From Minisyncoccia bacterium (GTDB taxonomy: Bacteria; Patescibacteriota; Minisyncoccia; SW-4-49-11), in contig JBIIRM010000005.1 of assembly GCA_044341565.1 (NCBI GenBank), positions 882 through 64,881 of the forward strand: a DNA stretch of 64,000 nucleotides. Direction: 5' to 3'. Under the pieces are notes generated by a model. That model ran no database searches and was not told the origin of the DNA. It worked only from the letters and a program-made list of their open reading frames with translations. Position numbers and translations under genes: made by a program. This document shows, in pieces, positions 5,284-29,158 of the stretch. Position 1 is the first letter of the stretch. The number at the start of each line of letters is the position of its first letter.

Positions 5284-5390
5284 ATATGTGATAGTTAATA
5301 CTACTACTATATGGTGTACACCATCTGGAGGTTTTCCTCCTTAATTATATTATAACTCTAAATTTAGCAGTGTCAAGAGTAGACTGCTAA

Positions 5391-6757: not shown

Positions 6758-7405
6758 TTACTCTTTGGTAATTTTTGCTGAAATAATTTTTACATCTTCA
6801 ACAGGCCTATCTGATGAAGCAGTTGCTACATTTCCAATATTTTCTACAATATCTAGTCCTCCAATTACTTTCCCTGCATTAGTATGTACTCCATCTAGCC
6901 AAGGAGTTGAATCAGCTGTTACAATAAAGAATTGTGAACCATTAGTATCCGGTCCGGAATTAGCTAGAGCAAAACTTCCCTTTACAAGAGGTTCATCATT
7001 GAATTCATCATCATATTTTTCTCCAGCATCTCCAGTTCCATATAAAGCAGATTTGCTTGGGTCTTTGGTATTAGGGTCTCCTCCTTGTATCATAAAATCT
7101 TTTATCACTCGATGGAATATGGTATCATTATATACTCCATTGTTAGCGTATTTAGTAATATATTCTACTGTTTTAGGGGATAAATCTTTGAATAATTCGA
7201 TAGTTATTACTCCTTTGTTGGTGGTGAATTCAAGTATTGGTCGCTCTTTCATAATATCTTCATTTAATTTGGTAATTTGTTGAGTAGTATCGAGACTTGC
7301 TTTGATGGCATCATTTCCTTTTTGACTAAAATCTTGATTAATATACATTCCTACTCCTGCTACTATTAAAAAGATTCCTATTGCAAAATATCCTAATTTT
7401 CTCAT
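6758..7405 (-). CDS. Peptidyl-prolyl cis-trans isomerase, cyclophilin type, with N-terminal membrane anchor
   Basis: Cyclophilin signature blocks HRVIKDFMIQGGDP and SFALANSGPDTNGSQFFIVT. Confidence 0.85.
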   Translation of the reverse strand: MRKLGYFAIGIFLIVAGVGMYINQDFSQKGNDAIKASLDTTQQITKLNEDIMKERPILEFTTNKGVITIELFKDLSPKTVEYITKYANNGVYNDTIFHRVIKDFMIQGGDPNTKDPSKSALYGTGDAGEKYDDEFNDEPLVKGSFALANSGPDTNGSQFFIVTADSTPWLDGVHTNAGKVIGGLDIVENIGNVATASSDRPVEDVKIISAKITKE

Positions 7406-7474: not shown

Positions 7475-8146
7475 CTATTTCTCCAAATGAGAATAATCAT
7501 TATACACCCATACTCTCCAACCAGTATAAGGGTATTCTGGACTATATTGTAAAATTGTGAGTCCGGTATTCTCTATCCAATACTGCTCTTGTAATCGAGT
7601 ATATAATTCGGGATTAATACTATCCCCTAAAATCGCTCTAATAATTAATGTATTGAGGAAAAATTGATGAGTGACAACTCCTATATTTTGTTCTGGTCTT
7701 GATTGCAATAATTCTAAAGCCTTATCTGCTCGAGTAATAAGAGTATCATAACTATCTCCATCTTCTACCTGCTCACCTGAATTAAATAAACTATGTTTCC
7801 AAGCTTTTTCTGTAGCTAATACGAGCTCATCACTACGTAATTTTCCAATAATAGAACTTGGTTTTTGTCTCTCTACCAACAAATCTGAATATTCAATATT
7901 ATAGTCCCTATCCTGACTAATAATTTCCGTTGTCTCCCGAGCTCGAGTTAAAGTACTAGATAATAATACATCTAATTCAAATTTAGCTATACGCTTAGCT
8001 AATCTTTGAGACTGCTCTCGCCCTAATTCCGTAAGATACTGTTCAGCTAAATGTATATCTTCATTAATAGAATCAAGATGTTGTATATTACCTTCACTTT
8101 GGCCATGCCGGAAAAAATAAATAGTTTTTTGTGATTTTGATTGCAT
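7475..8146 (-). CDS. Histidine phosphatase (phosphoglycerate mutase-like) family protein
   Basis: N-terminal RHG motif (IYFFRHGQSEGN) of the histidine phosphatase superfamily. Confidence 0.75.
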   Translation of the reverse strand: MQSKSQKTIYFFRHGQSEGNIQHLDSINEDIHLAEQYLTELGREQSQRLAKRIAKFELDVLLSSTLTRARETTEIISQDRDYNIEYSDLLVERQKPSSIIGKLRSDELVLATEKAWKHSLFNSGEQVEDGDSYDTLITRADKALELLQSRPEQNIGVVTHQFFLNTLIIRAILGDSINPELYTRLQEQYWIENTGLTILQYSPEYPYTGWRVWVYNDYSHLEK

Positions 8147-8330: not shown

Positions 8331-8711
8331 ATGACTAGTAAAAATGCTTTTGGAATTATTATCATTGGAGTTGGAATAATATGGCTATTGGGTAGTTTTG
8401 GAGTTCCTACTCCAAAACTTGGAGATTGGCTACCTGTCTTATTTATTGCGGCTGGAGTTTGGAAATTATTAGAATCTCAATTCAAATCTATTACTTTTCC
8501 TATTATTCTCATTGGGATTGGAATAGTATTGGGACTGCTTCGATTAAATGTGATTACTTGGGACAAATTCTGGCTTGCTGTAGGGCCTGCTATTGTGATT
8601 TTAATCGGTATTAATATACTTACAAGTAAAAAACAGGATAAGGGGCACAAAGAGGCAAGAGTGGAGTCTAAAGCTACAGAAGCTAAGGCAAATGCTAAAG
8701 ACAAAGAATAA
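8331..8711 (+). CDS. Hypothetical small membrane protein with Lys-rich C-terminal tail
   Basis: 126 aa with three hydrophobic helices, then a charged KEARVESKATEAKANAKDKE tail. Confidence 0.5.
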   Translation: MTSKNAFGIIIIGVGIIWLLGSFGVPTPKLGDWLPVLFIAAGVWKLLESQFKSITFPIILIGIGIVLGLLRLNVITWDKFWLAVGPAIVILIGINILTSKKQDKGHKEARVESKATEAKANAKDKE

Positions 8712-8716
8712 TTCTG

Positions 8717-8755
8717 TTGACATTTTTTTCATTTCAGTTCATACTAAATATATAC
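8717..8755 (+). promoter_or_regulatory. Candidate sigma70-like promoter upstream of the heliorhodopsin gene
   Basis: TTGACA at 8717..8722, then a 17-nt spacer and CATACT/TACTAAAT -10-like hexamers, about 20 nt before the ATG at 8774. Confidence 0.3.
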
Positions 8756-8773
8756 TAAATAAATACTAAATAT

Positions 8774-9610
8774 ATGATTTCTTTCAAATTACACAATGGT
8801 TTTGATCGCCTCAAGATGTATAATGGATTCATGGGAGCTGTACATTTCTTCCAAGCTGGATTAATGTTATATATTTCTAAAGAATCTTTACTGCCTGTAT
8901 TTACCAATTATCTCAAATTTGATGCTACAAATCGTAGCGCTGTACCTATGCCAGTACAAGAAAAGTTATTTGATGTAAATATTGGACCAGCTGTTGCCCT
9001 ATTCTTATTATTATCAGCTATAGCCCATTTTATTACTATTTTACCAAGTGTATATCCTTGGTATATCAAAAATCTCAAGAAACATATTAATGTAATCCGA
9101 TGGTATGAATATGCTTTATCATCATCAATAATGATTGTAATAATAGGATTATTGGTTGGTATTTATGATTTCGCTACTCTCTTATTACTCTTTGGACTTA
9201 ATGCGAGTATGAATCTTTTTGGTCTTGTGATGGAGCAAATCAATCAAGATAGAAAAGAAGTAAATTGGCTTCCATATATATTTGGATGTATTGCCGGTAT
9301 AATCCCTTGGATTGTTATTTTCCTTCATTTCCAAGGAGCTCTTGCTAATGCCGATGTAGATGTGCCAAGTTTTGTATATTGGATTGTATTTTCATTATTT
9401 GCAGTATTTAATATATTTGCAATCAATATGTTCCTTCAATACAAAAAAGTTGGGCCTTGGAAATCATATGTATTTGGAGAAAAAATCTATGTTTTTCTAT
9501 CCCTATTTGCAAAAACATTATTAGCTTGGCAAGTATGGTCAGGAACTCTTAGGGGTCGTGAGAATGATGTATCAGCTGCTATTAACCATATTATTCACTT
9601 AATTTCATAG
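8774..9610 (+). CDS. Heliorhodopsin (7-TM retinal-binding photoreceptor, inverted topology family)
   Basis: 278-aa 7-TM protein with blocks matching the heliorhodopsin family: IRWYEYALSSSIMIVIIG, FGLNASMNLFGL, FGCIAGIIPWIVIF, VPSFVYWIVFSLFAVFNIFAINMFLQYKK, and the helix-7 Lys in SLFAKTLLAWQVWSGTL (the Schiff-base Lys position). Confidence 0.7.
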   Translation: MISFKLHNGFDRLKMYNGFMGAVHFFQAGLMLYISKESLLPVFTNYLKFDATNRSAVPMPVQEKLFDVNIGPAVALFLLLSAIAHFITILPSVYPWYIKNLKKHINVIRWYEYALSSSIMIVIIGLLVGIYDFATLLLLFGLNASMNLFGLVMEQINQDRKEVNWLPYIFGCIAGIIPWIVIFLHFQGALANADVDVPSFVYWIVFSLFAVFNIFAINMFLQYKKVGPWKSYVFGEKIYVFLSLFAKTLLAWQVWSGTLRGRENDVSAAINHIIHLIS

Positions 9611-9632: not shown

Positions 9633-9662
9633 AAAAAAGCTCCGATTACTCGGAGCTTTTTT
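9633..9662. terminator. Bidirectional rho-independent terminator
   Basis: aaaaagctccg-attact-cggagctttttt, between the convergent heliorhodopsin(+) and RRM protein(-) genes. Confidence 0.7.
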
Positions 9663-9674
9663 AATATCGAGGAC

Positions 9675-9926
9675 TTATTCTCGAGGCTTAGCAGGTTGAA
9701 TAGAGATTTCTCTTTCTAGAAGAGATGCTCCATCTAACTGTTGAATTGCTTTTTCAGCTTCTTCTTCTGTGGCAAATTCGACGAAACCGTAACCTTTGCT
9801 ACGTCCCTCTTCTTTGTCAAAGATGATTTTTGCTGAGACTACAGTCCCAACAGTCTCAAAAAGAGATTGTAAGTCCTGGTTTGTTGCTTTGTACGCAATA
9901 TTTCGTACAAATAGATTCTTGCTCAT
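9675..9926 (-). CDS. RNA-binding protein, single RRM domain
   Basis: RNP-2 (LFVRNI) and RNP-1 (KGYGFVEF) motifs in an 83-aa protein. Confidence 0.85.
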   Translation of the reverse strand: MSKNLFVRNIAYKATNQDLQSLFETVGTVVSAKIIFDKEEGRSKGYGFVEFATEEEAEKAIQQLDGASLLEREISIQPAKPRE

Positions 9927-10067
9927 AATTTACATTGTTGAAGAAAGATTGCTCTTTCTTGCTAATACTTTATCTCCTGTCGACCTGCCTAAGCCCAGGA
10001 TTAATATCAATATACCATATATGTCAAAATTTGTACAATATTATCCACAATTTAGAGAGTAATATAC

Positions 10068-12596: not shown

Positions 12597-12668
12597 TTCT
12601 TTGGTCACTAGCTATTGATAATATTAGAGAAATATGTTATATATCAAACGTTTCTATGGAGAATCATT

Positions 12669-13097
12669 ATGAATACTAACTTGGTAGAAATTACTCTTTT
12701 AATGAGACAATCTTTCTTTGAACTTCTAGAGCTTATTGAAGACAAGTATAAATTGACAAGGGCAGAAATAGTCCATATCTCTGTCGGTCTATATTCCAGG
12801 AATAGAATTGAATCAACAAAAAGAAATCGGTTAGCTTCAATAAGGCCTGATAATACTATTGTGAGAGTATATGAAGAAATTCCGAGTAATGACTTAACCG
12901 AATTAACTGAAATTATACTTTATGTACATCAATCTCTTGATAGTGCGCTACAAATACTTGCATATAGTGATAGAAAGACAAGGGCAGAAATAGTCCATGA
13001 ATCTGTACATCTATACGAAAAATATATGGCTGACTTAGCAAAAGGATATAGATTAGCTTCAATAAGGCCTGATAATTCTATTGAAACAATCTATTAA
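12669..13097 (+). CDS. Tandem-duplicated ribbon-helix-helix (RHH, Arc/MetJ/CopG-like) DNA-binding protein (single-chain dimer)
   Basis: Two ~60-aa repeats, each a beta-strand (LVEITLLM / LTEIILYV) followed by two helices ending in (L/K)TRAEIVH(I/E)SV.LY, then a repeated RLASIRPDN(T/S)I tail. The DNA shows an internal 33-nt near-identical repeat (12833..12868 and 13053..13088). The start is taken at MNTNLV (12669) rather than the track ORF start at 12615. Confidence 0.5.
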   Translation: MNTNLVEITLLMRQSFFELLELIEDKYKLTRAEIVHISVGLYSRNRIESTKRNRLASIRPDNTIVRVYEEIPSNDLTELTEIILYVHQSLDSALQILAYSDRKTRAEIVHESVHLYEKYMADLAKGYRLASIRPDNSIETIY

Positions 13098-24330: not shown

Positions 24331-25302
24331 TCAGTGATTTGCCTTTGCTAATAAAGCCTGTTTACTAGGAATCCGTAGCTGATAAGCCCAACCAAGACGC
24401 TCCAGAAATCGTATGAAGTAGTAGGTAGGGTCTGGTAATGTCACTACCTTGTTACCCTGTAGGGTAAAGCCTTGTCTTGCTGAGTATTCGAAGCTATGGT
24501 GTAGATTATGCCAACCTTCGCCAAGAGTGATAATAGCCACCCAAGGGTTGTTACGACTACCATCGCGGGTAATGAATGGCTGATCACCTACTAAGTGGGC
24601 CACAGAGTTTACCGTAGCAACACCGTGGAACAAAAGAGTAGTACTCAGACAAAATGCACCCAACCATTCTATACCACCGATATGCCAGGAGATCCAAGCT
24701 AATGCCAAAGCTGGCACTATATGTAGTCTATCGATCAAACGTAATACAGGATCAGACTCTATATCAGCTGGTAGGGTACTAGGATGAAATCCAGGTGAAA
24801 GTATCCAACCTATCTGAGAATGCCAAAAACCATGCAGTCGATTTCTATACATCAGAGGGCTATGAGGATCATCCAAGGTATCAACATGACGATGATGAGC
24901 CTTGTGATGAGCCTTCCACCAACTTGGTCCCATCTGGCCTGCTGAGGCTGTTATTATGGATCCGATCCACCATACTAGTCTAGGAGCCTTATAGCTATTG
25001 TGAGTAATCAAGCGATGGTAAATGGCAGTAATTCCAAGCATCCGTACTAGGTATAATACTGTAGCCCAGAGGATGGCGTATAATCCAAGTCTCTCCCGAA
25101 ACAGCAGTAGACAGCCTATATGCGCAACCAGTATGAATACCGGTCCCATACCATGCAAAAACCGAAGGAGATGGGATTGGGAAATAGAATGGGAAGATAC
25201 TGCTGTGGAACTGATAGATTTTGAATTAAACATCAGCATATTCCAGTCTAAACTGGACCATAAGGACATAAACACCTTAGCATACTTATTATGTTTAATC
25301 AA
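24331..25302 (-). CDS. desC: Acyl-CoA/acyl-lipid delta-9 fatty acid desaturase (membrane di-iron, three His boxes)
   Basis: His boxes HRLITH, HKAHHRHVDTLDDPHSP and GEGWHNLHHSF match the stearoyl-CoA/DesC delta-9 desaturase family. The body is ~45% GC against a ~30% background. The AT-rich first ~50 codons suggest the true start may be an internal Met (~25149). Confidence 0.75.
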   Translation of the reverse strand: MIKHNKYAKVFMSLWSSLDWNMLMFNSKSISSTAVSSHSISQSHLLRFLHGMGPVFILVAHIGCLLLFRERLGLYAILWATVLYLVRMLGITAIYHRLITHNSYKAPRLVWWIGSIITASAGQMGPSWWKAHHKAHHRHVDTLDDPHSPLMYRNRLHGFWHSQIGWILSPGFHPSTLPADIESDPVLRLIDRLHIVPALALAWISWHIGGIEWLGAFCLSTTLLFHGVATVNSVAHLVGDQPFITRDGSRNNPWVAIITLGEGWHNLHHSFEYSARQGFTLQGNKVVTLPDPTYYFIRFLERLGWAYQLRIPSKQALLAKANH

Positions 25303-25401: not shown

Positions 25402-26103
25402 TCAGATTAGGGCTGCGGTAGCGAGCTTGGCGATTTCACGGGTGGAGAATCCGATTTTCGTCAAAGCTTCTTGATATGAGATGAGGAAATCCTCAATGAG
25501 GTCTTCCCTGTCCATTTGGAGGACGGCCGCGTCACCGGCTACCTGATCAAGCATAATGCGTACCAATGGGAGATTGTCCCGATTGGCCTGCTCCAACTCC
25601 TTACGAATAGCTTCGAAATTAGACCTAAGCCATTCTTGACCATAATTGAGATGAGCGTATTCATCCTTGACTACTCCCTCGGTGATTTTCCGTGCAAACG
25701 GATCAGCAACTGGGATATAGATGTGATAAGCTGCAATTGCAAAGGCCTCGATGAGAATCGCTTGAATCAGCAAACAGGTGACTACCTTCCTCTCTGTAAA
25801 AGCTTTTTGAAAATTACCATGTAGGGGCAAGAAAAACTCTTTAGCAAAAGGTATATCTGCTTGCACTCCCAAGTTGCGGGCACAGGCAGTGAAACCCTTC
25901 ATATGCCTCAGCTCCATACCCGCAAGGCGGGTAAGCTCTTCAGCCTGATCGGGTAGCAAGCTACCAAGGGAAATGTAATTGTCATAAGCTTCTTGCTCAC
26001 CTTCAATCACAATTGCATTGATGCGACTATAAGCATCTTTGTAATCCCTGGTGGTGAAATCTGGTAGACCTTCCACAAGTGGTTTAGAAGACGTAATTGA
26101 CAT
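25402..26103 (-). CDS. ado: Aldehyde-deformylating oxygenase (cyanobacterial-type fatty aldehyde decarbonylase, ferritin-like di-iron)
   Basis: Very close match throughout to cyanobacterial ADO: [128 protein letters not shown] is clearly elevated relative to flanking genes. Confidence 0.9.
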
Positions 26104-27952: not shown

Positions 27953-29158
27953 ATGGAGCATTTAACCATGTCTGCTCAGACACGTGTTGAGAGATTTTTT
28001 GATAAGGCAGGAGTTGACCAAACCTTTATTACTGCAACTTCTAATTTTTATAAAGCTTTCAATGGACGGTTCACCCTTGGAATGGGTGAATCTTATATCA
28101 ATGGCAGTTTTGCGATTGGCGATGAGAATCTCATCGCAATGTTCACCAAGATTTTTGCAAGCTTGAATGGATTCTTGCGGGGAGATGATTATGCGGGGTT
28201 TAGCTCACTGGGATTTTATCGGCTGTATCAGCTGATGAATGCCACCCAAATGATCAATTGGCAGTACATTCGTGCAAAGTATTTTGCGGATATTCACTAT
28301 GAGCTACCTCATCAGCTTTTTGTCCAGATGCTTGGCCCCTCTCGGGCTTATAGCTCTGGGTATTGGCCAGAAGGGGTGGAGACTCTAGACCAAGCCCAGG
28401 ATGCCAAGTTTGACTTGATTATCCGCAAGCTTGGCTTAGAAGCTGGCGACACCGTCCTCGACTTCGGTTGTGGGGCGGGTAGTTTTGGCAGATATGCAGG
28501 ATCTCGCGGTATTCGAGTCGTTGGACTCAATATCTGCCAGGAGCAACTCGCTTATGCTCGAGCTCACAATGACCAAGAAGTTACTGCCATTTACCTTGAT
28601 TTTAATTTGGTAACACAAAGTGTTGCTGAGTTACAATCAATTCTCAAACCCTATGGGATTGAGAACTTTGATGCTGTGACCTTTATTGGCTCGATTGAGC
28701 ATGTGGGGTGGAAGAATTATGATTCCCTCTATCGCAAACTCAATCAGCTTATGAATCCTACGGGACGGATTCTCTGCCATGTTATTGGATCCTATATTCC
28801 ATTACCGGTGGCCGATCCCTATATCATGACCAAGATTTTCCCTGACTCGCAGCTTGCTGTGAACAGTGAAATGACAAGGGCAACTGAGAAGGCTGGTTTC
28901 CAGCTAATGGATTGGCATAACCTGGAAACAGGTATTCACTCCTATGCCAAGACACTGAGAGCTTGGCTTAACAACTTCCAAACCAACTGGGAAACTATCA
29001 AGCCCTCTATGCCTCACAAAGATAAGGAAGCCTTTTACAGGGAATGGGTATTCTACCTAATGCTCTGTATTGGAGCCTTCGAGTCTGACTTTGTCAATGT
29101 TGGACACTATGTGTTCCGCAAGACTGCAGACACTCGCCCATTCACTCCAGCCCGCTAA
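27953..29158 (+). CDS. Cyclopropane-fatty-acyl-phospholipid synthase-like SAM-dependent methyltransferase
   Basis: CFAS/mycolic-acid-synthase family layout with SAM motif I VLDFGCGAGSFGRYAG. GC is elevated (up to ~50% in the 3' half). Confidence 0.7.
   Translation: MEHLTMSAQTRVERFFDKAGVDQTFITATSNFYKAFNGRFTLGMGESYINGSFAIGDENLIAMFTKIFASLNGFLRGDDYAGFSSLGFYRLYQLMNATQMINWQYIRAKYFADIHYELPHQLFVQMLGPSRAYSSGYWPEGVETLDQAQDAKFDLIIRKLGLEAGDTVLDFGCGAGSFGRYAGSRGIRVVGLNICQEQLAYARAHNDQEVTAIYLDFNLVTQSVAELQSILKPYGIENFDAVTFIGSIEHVGWKNYDSLYRKLNQLMNPTGRILCHVIGSYIPLPVADPYIMTKIFPDSQLAVNSEMTRATEKAGFQLMDWHNLETGIHSYAKTLRAWLNNFQTNWETIKPSMPHKDKEAFYREWVFYLMLCIGAFESDFVNVGHYVFRKTADTRPFTPAR

Follow-up and report, generated by a model that had tools for sequence, protein, structure and literature searches.

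The 64,000-nucleotide stretch of Minisyncoccia contig JBIIRM010000005.1 analysed here, hereafter the window, encodes a genuine and intact heliorhodopsin (HeR) of 278 residues: profile score, predicted fold and every defining residue tested agree on this. The protein is likely to be a light-responsive regulator that transports no ions, scavenges its retinal and acts on a partner through conserved cytoplasmic loops.

An earlier note on this DNA, made from the letters alone, had assigned the gene product to the seven-transmembrane HeR family. Profile searches bear this out, with scores far over the cut-offs and a match far beyond chance. The Pfam profile PF18761 is covered by the HeR in its entirety (positions 1-242 of 242; E = 2.7e-94, 315.5 bits against a cut-off of 26.7), as is the NCBIfam equivalog NF038020, 'heliorhodopsin HeR' (positions 1-244 of 244; 321 bits against a cut-off of 100). 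A sequence search of the whole PDB gave six matches, all to HeR sequences, the best being to TaHeR (6is6, E = 2.8e-73) and 48C12 (6su3, E = 1.8e-56).

The fold was modelled with AlphaFold2, using 67 homologues as input. The model has a mean predicted local distance difference test score (pLDDT) of 87.1 and a predicted template modelling (TM) score of 0.84, and comprises helices A-G together with the β-hairpin between helices A and B (strands 39-46 and 61-69). In Foldseek comparisons it superimposes on TaHeR (7u55 and 6is6) with a root-mean-square deviation (rmsd) of 1.8-1.9 Å and a target-normalised TM-score of 0.91-0.93, and its ten best PDB matches are HeRs only (E-values of 6e-21 to 5e-15, rmsd 1.8-2.8 Å).

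The possibility of a type-1 microbial rhodopsin was considered and ruled out. Helix G of HeRs carries an SxxxK motif, whereas type-1 rhodopsins have DxxxK, and the window protein has Ser in place of the Asp. The Bac_rhodopsin profile (PF01036) does not match it at E-values up to 1, and type-1 structures resemble the model only distantly in Foldseek (E of 4e-3 or higher, TM-scores of around 0.55-0.63, identities of 6-17%).

Retinal pocket, membrane topology and ion transport

The HeR was aligned with TaHeR, 48C12 and 120 database homologues, and 44 structural positions were mapped using the residue lists of Kovalev et al. 2020 (PMC7049168) and, for the fenestration, of the Kornilov et al. 2025 preprint. 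The helix-7 Schiff-base lysine, which the earlier note had read from the sequence SLFAKTLLAWQ, is indeed present in the translation as Lys247 of SLFAK. It aligns with the retinal-binding lysines of 48C12 and TaHeR and, within SxxxK, is invariant in 120 of 120 homologues; Ser243, at the start of the motif, aligns with S237 of 48C12 and S234 of TaHeR. The alignment to 48C12 that had been proposed as a check gives a clear answer at the counter-ion as well, pairing Glu112 with E107 just as it pairs Lys247 with K241, and Glu112 too is the same residue in all 120 homologues. HeRs have a single counter-ion, a helix-C Glu (E107 in 48C12), which Ser76 and Ser111 stabilise (PMC7049168); the counterparts of these serines, Ser81 and Ser116, are present and invariant.

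The polar cavity on the cytoplasmic side is complete, comprising His24, His85, Asn17, Asn106, Arg109, Tyr97, Tyr113, Glu236 and Glu154 (His23, His80, Asn16, Asn101, Arg104, Tyr92, Tyr108, Glu230 and Glu149 of 48C12). Further conserved HeR residues were found in Trp110, Gln222, Tyr232, Pro41, Pro178, Gln27/Trp252 and Gln253/Ser207. The fenestration or carotenoid-site motif, defined in 48C12 numbering as aromatic residues at 162 and 206, small ones at 166 and 210, Gly169 and Asn207 (Kornilov et al. 2025 preprint), is likewise complete at the sequence level, with Tyr168, Cys172, Gly175, Phe212, Asn213 and Ala216. No mismatch was seen at the Schiff-base, cavity or fenestration positions, and these residues, along with Trp110 and the others named with it, do not vary among the 31 members of the close clade. 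For Lys247, Glu112 and around 20 pocket and cavity residues the same holds in all 89 outgroup proteins. Such deviations as exist are ordinary family variants, namely Met219 for Gln213 and His185 for Tyr179, the latter being the dimer-interface Tyr of 48C12.

Lys and Arg make up 10 of the 56 residues in the predicted cytoplasmic loops and six of the 71 in the extracellular loops. This bias agrees with the inverted topology, N-terminus inside and C-terminus outside, as a statistical indication rather than proof.

Some HeRs, those of viral subfamily 2, move protons, as cited in the Kornilov 2025 preprint and PMC11109279. An ion-transporting protein comparable to these proton-conducting giant-virus HeRs is nevertheless extremely unlikely here. 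The viral proteins have an altered retinal pocket and an acidic residue in helix F (at Leu202 of 48C12), and lack both Pro172 and the fenestration motif (PMC7049168; Kornilov preprint). The window HeR fits none of this description: Leu208 stands where the transporting viral HeRs often carry Glu, Pro178 (Pro172 of 48C12) and the fenestration motif are present, and, from the sequence and the helix limits of the model, there is no Asp or Glu in the extracellular halves of helices A-G. In addition, the structures that it most resembles, TaHeR and 48C12, belong to HeRs that do not transport ions.

Host lineage, selection and retinal supply

The host is a freshwater member of the Patescibacteria or candidate phyla radiation (CPR), of class Paceibacteria and order SW-4-49-11, with a genome of about 0.9 Mb. 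The nearest database proteins are 78-94% identical to the HeR, 276-282 residues long if full-length, and labelled Parcubacteria. A scan in which each GTDB species was represented by one genome revealed 11 genomes encoding a HeR of 78-99% identity, variously named Paceibacteria, Paceibacterota, Parcubacteria or Minisyncoccia; the relatives come from Lake Zurich (epilimnion), Lake Mendota, rivers and similar freshwater. Over the 8-10 kb around the HeR gene, DNA identity is 92.9% for L002, 88.5% for L003 and L005 and 74-80% for the others (labels in L denote HeR loci, those in P HeR proteins). L003 is the metagenome-assembled genome (MAG) ZE-Oct18-75, classified as Patescibacteria; Paceibacteria; o__SW-4-49-11; f__SW-4-49-11, with an assembly of 0.79 Mb, an estimated size of 0.90 Mb and a GC content of 34.2% (Chiriac et al. 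2022, PMC9166423). The GC content of the window is the same, 34.2%. The earlier description of the genome as small and AT-rich is therefore right, but the size derives from this congeneric MAG (0.90 Mb, 34.2% GC) and cannot be read from the window itself. In our literature search for a described host of order SW-4-49-11, the order's name was not met; the alga-associated Phycocordibacterales belong to a different Paceibacteria order, UBA9973.

The HeR is under strong purifying selection, the ratio of nonsynonymous to synonymous substitution rates (dN/dS) between the window and ten relatives being 0.06-0.13 in pairwise comparisons. Eleven related genomes of species rank, sampled from various lakes and rivers, carry the gene at this locus, and the identical protein is encoded on independent JGI and Logan contigs. 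The least variable segments of the HeR are the CD loop (0% of positions vary), the FG loop (14%), helix E (15%) and the BC loop (17%); variation is greatest in the AB loop, the EF loop and the termini.

Most variable of all, at 14 of 19 positions, is a clade-specific C-terminal tail of 18 residues, which nonetheless follows the pattern G-[RT]-E-N-x-V-S-x-x-I-x-x-x-x-x-L/I-x-S in all full-length clade members. It is present in the relatives of 276-282 residues (P0001-P0029) and missing from P0030 onwards, from TaHeR and from 48C12, all of which end in ...GTLRP. AlphaFold2 predicts a helix at 263-277 with pLDDT 65-73, and the hydrophobic moment of 0.42 is equalled by 2.2% of shuffled sequences. 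From the HeR topology, the tail is predicted to be at the extracellular surface of the membrane.

The claim that no retinal-biosynthesis genes are visible in the window stands: a Pfam scan of its open reading frames (ORFs) of at least 120 residues, across all 64 kb, produced no member of the Blh/BCD, RPE65-type, phytoene synthase, CrtI or lycopene-cyclase families, and none of five unannotated window ORFs that were inspected is a Blh-like multi-helix membrane protein. Retinal scavenging is the standard explanation for rhodopsin carriers lacking retinal genes. The host probably borrows retinal from other organisms, a possibility already raised in the earlier note and supported by the pathway-free window, the fenestration residues and precedent in the CPR. 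Saccharibacteria with rhodopsins lack blh, and their rhodopsins bind added retinal within seconds via an apoprotein opening; Actinobacteria with blh are common inhabitants of these sunlit lakes (Jaffe et al. 2022, PMC9296517). TaHeR, as cited in that paper, also takes up retinal within seconds, via a lateral opening, and comes from an organism without a retinal pathway.

The absence of retinal and carotenoid genes from the window might also suit a HeR that acts mainly without retinal, as a structural membrane protein or a lipid scramblase. Opsins of all domains have been described as light- and retinal-independent scramblases, a role proposed for opsin-only genomes (bioRxiv 10.1101/2025.08.17.670764), and scrambling might be of benefit to a CPR cell that is lipid-dependent. 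However, that study found no conserved residue requirement, so that scramblase activity would not explain why Lys247, the counter-ion and around 20 pocket residues are invariant throughout the clade and the outgroup under a dN/dS of about 0.08. Nor does the word heliorhodopsin appear in its text, and the habitat is sunlit water in which blh carriers are common. A largely retinal-free role is accordingly improbable.

Lipid genes of apparently foreign origin are found elsewhere in the window. The aldehyde-deformylating oxygenase (ADO) gene product is 83-84% identical to the ADOs of freshwater Cyanobium, Synechococcus and Vulcanococcus, and that of the neighbouring delta-9 acyl desaturase gene shares 66-72% identity with proteins from these picocyanobacteria. 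The G+C content at third codon positions (GC3) of the pair is 0.38-0.46 compared with 0.15-0.28 for native genes; no acyl-ACP reductase partner of ADO was seen. The same context was assembled in three independent samples. A nearby cyclopropane-fatty-acid synthase (CMAS) gene is also foreign in composition (GC 0.454, GC3 0.468). In the relative L084 the order is CMAS-ADO-desaturase, with one small unannotated ORF between CMAS and ADO, where the window has native fasciclin and sortase genes. The identities and composition of ADO and desaturase indicate that this CPR genome recently acquired the two genes from picocyanobacteria. They perhaps reflect an association with picocyanobacteria, which might then serve as a pigment source for the HeR.

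A carotenoid-rich partner of this kind, at which the transfers hint, would favour a two-antenna light harvester, in which an exogenous xanthophyll bound at the fenestration passes energy to retinal, a scheme put forward for most HeRs, with an output related to energy and not purely sensory. As described, nothing is missing from the carotenoid-site motif (Kornilov et al. 2025 preprint). Sortases are enzymes of Gram-positive-type envelopes, and the sortase gene in the window together with membership of the CPR suggests a monoderm-type envelope, in line with the monoderm hosts among which the HeR family is reported to be distributed. The proposal itself, though, comes from structure comparison and docking, HeR carotenoid binding not having been measured in the source preprint; its motif occurs in 91% of HeRs and so says nothing specific about this one, and no energy-converting output such as ion transport is known for the HeR subfamily concerned. 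We therefore hold such harvesting to be distinctly improbable as the principal function, but compatible with regulation by scavenged retinal as an addition to it.

Transcription unit and gene neighbourhood

The earlier note had further described the gene as native in composition, preceded by a sigma70-like promoter and followed by a strong bidirectional terminator, and each of these readings was upheld. GC is 0.319 and GC3 0.222 for the HeR gene, compared with a GC3 of 0.15-0.29 for neighbouring and housekeeping genes and a window GC of 0.342, while three clearly foreign genes in the window have a GC3 of 0.38-0.47. The native GC3, the locus shared by 11 genomes and the independent contigs rule out both a foreign origin of the HeR gene and an assembly chimera.

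The promoter (Table 1) is among 14 promoter-like sites observed in this AT-rich region, compared with 10.1 +/- 3.0 in shuffles. Since such matches are common in AT-rich DNA, the comparative evidence weighs more: the TTGACA box is invariant and a CATAMT box conserved in 12 of 12 related lineages, among which the spacer and the DNA 5' of the -35 box are divergent. The more distant L086 has TTGACT-17-CATACT at the matching place. Conservation resumes in the leader, whose last 24 nucleotides before the ATG are nearly invariant across the 12 lineages. Of the 30 positions preceding the ATG, 15 are invariant, compared with 1-8 for most neighbours; higher or similar values were seen for the RRM gene (25) and the Hsp20 gene (13). 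A structured RNA in the HeR leader was considered and discarded, the leader consisting of some 28 nucleotides of A/T and Rfam finding only two tRNAs in the window.

Table 1. Positions of the HeR gene, its parts and signals, and other features of the window
Feature	Position	Strand	Description and evidence
HeR coding sequence	8774..9610	+	278 residues + stop, ATG start; ORF, profiles, AlphaFold model, dN/dS
Glu112 codon (GAA)	9107..9109	+	Schiff-base counter-ion; E107 in 48C12, E108 in TaHeR; alignment
Lys247 codon (AAA)	9512..9514	+	retinal Schiff-base lysine in S243-L-F-A-K247; K241 in 48C12, K238 in TaHeR
C-terminal tail, G261-S278	9554..9607	+	clade-specific, 18 residues; alignment; predicted amphipathic helix
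HeR promoter, sigma-70 type	8717..8745	+	TTGACA (8717-8722), 17-nt spacer, CATACT (8740-8745); 10/12 positions, joint-best in region scanned
HeR leader	8746..8773	+	AT-rich, no Shine-Dalgarno sequence, TAYTAAATAAAYATTAAATAT before ATG; cross-lineage conservation
Bidirectional intrinsic terminator	9633..9662	.	AAAAAAGCTCCGA-TTAC-TCGGAGCTTTTTT (A6-GCTCCGA-TTAC-TCGGAGC-T6); serves HeR gene (+) and convergent RRM gene (-)
LiaF-TM membrane protein gene	8331..8711	+	126 residues, LiaF-TM domain only, four hydrophobic segments; Pfam PF22570, E 5.8e-14
Histidine phosphatase gene	7475-8146	-	neighbour
Cyclophilin peptidyl-prolyl isomerase gene	6758-7405	-	neighbour
RRM protein gene	9675-9926	-	neighbour, convergent to HeR
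RRM/RNP-1 gene 5' leader	9927-9986	-	inverted repeat AAGAAAGAG-YAAT-CTTTCTT
Hsp20 upstream element	5284-5343	-	inverted repeat AAGGAGGGAAACCTCC, then TGTACA
Unannotated repeat ORF	12615-13097	+	160 residues
Delta-9 acyl desaturase gene	24331-25302	-	
ADO gene	25402-26103	-	PF11266, E 1.4e-115
CMAS gene	27953-29158	+	

Other gene starts in the window show features of their own. A GGAG, GAGG or AGGA sequence lies upstream of the start in two of 53 window ORFs, so that Shine-Dalgarno sequences are essentially lacking, and many starts have a TATACT- or TAYTAAAT-like box 6-12 nucleotides upstream; these boxes may point to short-leader or leaderless mRNAs. The RRM gene leader, with 25 of its last 30 positions invariant in 12 lineages, could be an autoregulatory or temperature-responsive element, and the element upstream of Hsp20 (13 of the last 30 positions invariant, eight lineages) may serve in heat-shock control. 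An unannotated 160-residue ORF downstream of HeR consists of two copies of a unit of about 45 residues (…TRAEIVH.SV.LY……RLASIRPDN…); no Pfam family matches it, and L005 conserves it at 71% identity.

The terminator has a folding energy of -20.5 kcal/mol (z = -4.5 against shuffles). Its hairpin is kept in 11 of 11 relatives although the stems differ (GCTCCGA, ACTCCGA, CCCGG, TCCCGA and CCCCGA), a pattern that amounts to compensatory change. With a conserved promoter of its own and this terminator, the HeR gene forms a monocistronic unit. An operon with the LiaF-TM gene upstream is ruled out by the conservation of the HeR promoter and by a GC-rich terminator hairpin that separates the LiaF-TM gene from that promoter in three relatives (L006, L009 and L012).

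The neighbours listed in the earlier note, namely the cyclophilin peptidyl-prolyl isomerase (PPIase), a histidine phosphatase, a small membrane protein (here LiaF-TM) and the RRM protein, are all present. On the 5' side the order runs Hsp20, serine hydrolase, small membrane proteins, PPIase, histidine phosphatase, tRNA-Ala, LiaF-TM and HeR; beyond HeR, the convergent RRM gene is followed by genes for a class-I aldolase, a phosphoglycerate mutase-like protein and exonuclease III. This order is kept, as far as the loci extend, in L002-L008 and L010-L012, L009 being too short to show more than the HeR and RRM genes. When 13 window neighbours were compared with 80 HeR loci by tblastn, matches were confined to the collinear clade, and none of the window's neighbour genes lies beside HeR in 69 loci of Chloroflexota, Thermoplasmata, Actinomycetota and other CPR. 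In 58 of these loci, the 111 genes immediately next to HeR were also compared with the window by Pfam family, and nothing was common to both. As the neighbours are confined to one collinear family, the context of HeR is conserved genome backbone, LiaF-TM excepted. The expectation that the neighbourhood would be informative was thus not borne out, HeR being its own transcription unit amid genes not common to other HeR loci.

LiaF-TM is the exception because its gene lies directly 5' of HeR on the same strand in 10 of the 10 clade loci that reach that far (L002-L008 and L010-L012). The P0030 lineage, whose HeR is 73% identical and has no tail, likewise encodes a LiaF-like protein 77 bp upstream of HeR, here full-length with both the LiaF-TM and the LiaF-like_C domain, although the other flanking genes differ (a response regulator and type IV pilus genes). 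This protein is 30% identical to the window's LiaF-TM protein, and at L086:4201-4923, of the same lineage, the LiaF-like form with the C-terminal domain has 240 residues. In the window clade, the LiaF-like protein is cut down to the transmembrane domain plus a Lys/Glu-rich tail (105-127 residues).

The two proteins might on this basis form a light or envelope signalling module with LiaF-TM as membrane transducer, modelled on the sensory rhodopsin-Htr transducer pair or on the control of the LiaS kinase by LiaF. We think this unlikely. The separate promoters, with a terminator between the genes in three relatives, and the far faster evolution of LiaF-TM (44-52% identity compared with 78-83% for HeR at equal divergence) argue against tight coupling. 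The pairing is missing from the HeR lineages at 60-62% identity (P0032, P0036, L013 and L085) and from other HeR loci: a hidden Markov model of the clade's LiaF-TM found none adjacent to HeR in the 69 other loci, the one weak LiaF-like match, in L022, being 2.7 kb away on the other strand. The lineages P0032, P0033 and P0036, which stand between this clade and the remaining HeRs, have differing contexts without a LiaF-TM neighbour. LiaF-TM is also not among the recurrent HeR partners of published surveys, and adjacency in related small genomes can be residual synteny.

Outside the CPR, the most recurrent immediate HeR neighbour in our set of loci is a cluster of proteins of about 155 residues. 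Its members come from six non-CPR loci (L059:6766-7242, L063:900-1364, L030:6832-7296, L040:6737-7246, L048:6964-7284 on the + strand and L066:4936-5814), Anaerolineae and one Microthrixaceae. The cluster very likely corresponds to six matches to Staygreen (PF12638, the Mg-dechelatase family; best E 1.9e-49). Where tabulated (L059, L063 and L040), the gene has the orientation of HeR and follows it directly, either overlapping it or separated from it by 12 bp. Bulzu et al. 2021 (PMC8612252) make no mention of the Staygreen family in their main text.

Proposed mode of action and comparison with known systems

Transcription and residues, the first elements of the mechanism we propose, come from sequence and comparison, the later steps from the biochemistry of TaHeR, 48C12 and other HeRs. 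The gene is transcribed alone from its conserved sigma-70-type promoter, transcription stopping at the bidirectional terminator. The protein, presumably inserted with its N-terminus inside, adopts the seven-helix HeR fold with a complete retinal pocket, in which Glu112 is held by Ser81, Ser116 and Ser243 next to the cavity of His24, His85, Asn106, Arg109 and Glu236, the extracellular half being uncharged. Since the organism is most likely unable to make retinal, the apoprotein would take up all-trans-retinal from neighbouring or host cells through the fenestration between helices E and F. Light would isomerise the retinal, and the Schiff-base proton would stay in the internal cavity, so that no ion is transported. 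A long-lived photo-intermediate may then reshape the conserved, lysine-rich BC and FG loops. By binding and modulating a partner, these loops would make the HeR a light-responsive regulator.

Some considerations weigh against this reading. Retinal binding, colour, photocycle and lack of transport are all deduced from homology; the missing retinal synthesis refers to 64 kb out of a genome of about 0.9 Mb; and the positive-inside bias of the HeR is modest. We nevertheless regard it as likely. A wider scenario, in which the SW-4-49-11 lineage consists of light-sensing epibionts or associates of picocyanobacteria that supply retinal and perhaps a xanthophyll, and in which HeR conveys a day/night signal via its tail, LiaF-TM or both and so keeps the symbiont in step with its host, is speculative and in our opinion doubtful.

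With a genome of about 0.9 Mb, a single freshwater family has kept its HeR under strong purifying selection in no fewer than 12 species-level lineages, which shows that the protein is useful even though the cell is very likely unable to make the chromophore. HeR function is known in few cases, and a small genome, having few candidate partners, is a convenient place to search for the partner of a stand-alone HeR. The clade adds its own C-terminal tail and LiaF-TM neighbour; knowledge of the family as a whole is unchanged.

Among the systems with known partners, HeR regulates glutamine synthetase (AbHeR; PMC9529153) and photolyase and the ABC exporter OmrDE (TsHeR and OcHeR; PMC11109279), in each case through a positively charged cytoplasmic surface that binds the partner, with modulation by light. 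The BC and FG loops of the window HeR are similarly Lys-rich and conserved. In contrast to these HeRs, whose partner genes are co-transcribed, the window HeR is monocistronic and stands outside the operon-coupled regulatory groups (ten partner groups; Kim et al. 2024). There is no glutamine synthetase or photolyase gene among the window ORFs of at least 120 residues, two ABC exporter genes lie 25 kb from HeR, and the nearest alpha/beta hydrolase gene is 2.8 kb away on the other strand. No neighbour is predicted to be co-transcribed for 61% of surveyed HeR genes (PMC11109279), and it is in this 'HeR alone' class that the window HeR falls. For CPR HeRs, gene context elsewhere has prompted the proposal of a link to protection from oxidative stress (PMC8612252, PMC9166423).

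The closest structures are those of TaHeR, from Thermoplasmatales archaeon SG8-52-1 (6is6, 7u55 and 7clj), with 49-50% identity over 249 aligned columns. The two proteins share the Schiff-base Lys, the Glu counter-ion, the His pair, the polar cavity, Met at the position of Gln213 and the fenestration Tyr, although the host of one is archaeal and that of the other a CPR bacterium. The EF loop of the window HeR is five residues longer than that of TaHeR, as in 48C12, and the neighbours of its fenestration are the 48C12-like Ile176 and Phe209 rather than the Phe172 and Ala200 of TaHeR. 48C12 (6su3 and 6uh3), the founding HeR from a freshwater actinobacterial fosmid, is 41-42% identical with a TM-score of 0.87-0.90. 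All family-conserved residues of Kovalev et al. 2020 (PMC7049168) are common to both, which differ in Met219 and His185 as opposed to Gln213 and Tyr179. The amphipathic tail of 18 residues sets the window HeR apart from TaHeR and 48C12 alike.

The type-1 rhodopsins of Saccharibacteria, or SacRs (PMC9296517), offer an ecological parallel: they too occur in the CPR and in sunlit freshwater, without blh and with retinal thought to be external. They are, however, outward proton pumps of normal topology, whereas the window HeR has no type-1 profile match and compares with type-1 structures at a TM-score of about 0.6 and an identity of 12-17%. HeRs themselves have already been published from the CPR. 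Patescibacteria were included in the survey of Bulzu et al. 2021 (PMC8612252), and 98 HeRs were reported from CPR genomes by Chiriac et al. 2022 (PMC9166423), 80 from Saccharimonadia, seven from Dojkabacteria, three from ABY1 and a few from others, Paceibacteria not being named in the text. A HeR orthologue of 96% identity is encoded by MAG ZE-Oct18-75 from the same study. Published CPR HeRs share with the window HeR the family, the SxxxK logic and the type of host, a fermentative freshwater CPR bacterium with a small genome. Their commonest motifs are SLVAK, SLIAK and SFVAK (PMC9166423), from which the SLFAK of the window clade differs. The window HeR thus slightly extends the documented distribution of the family, to the Paceibacteria order SW-4-49-11.

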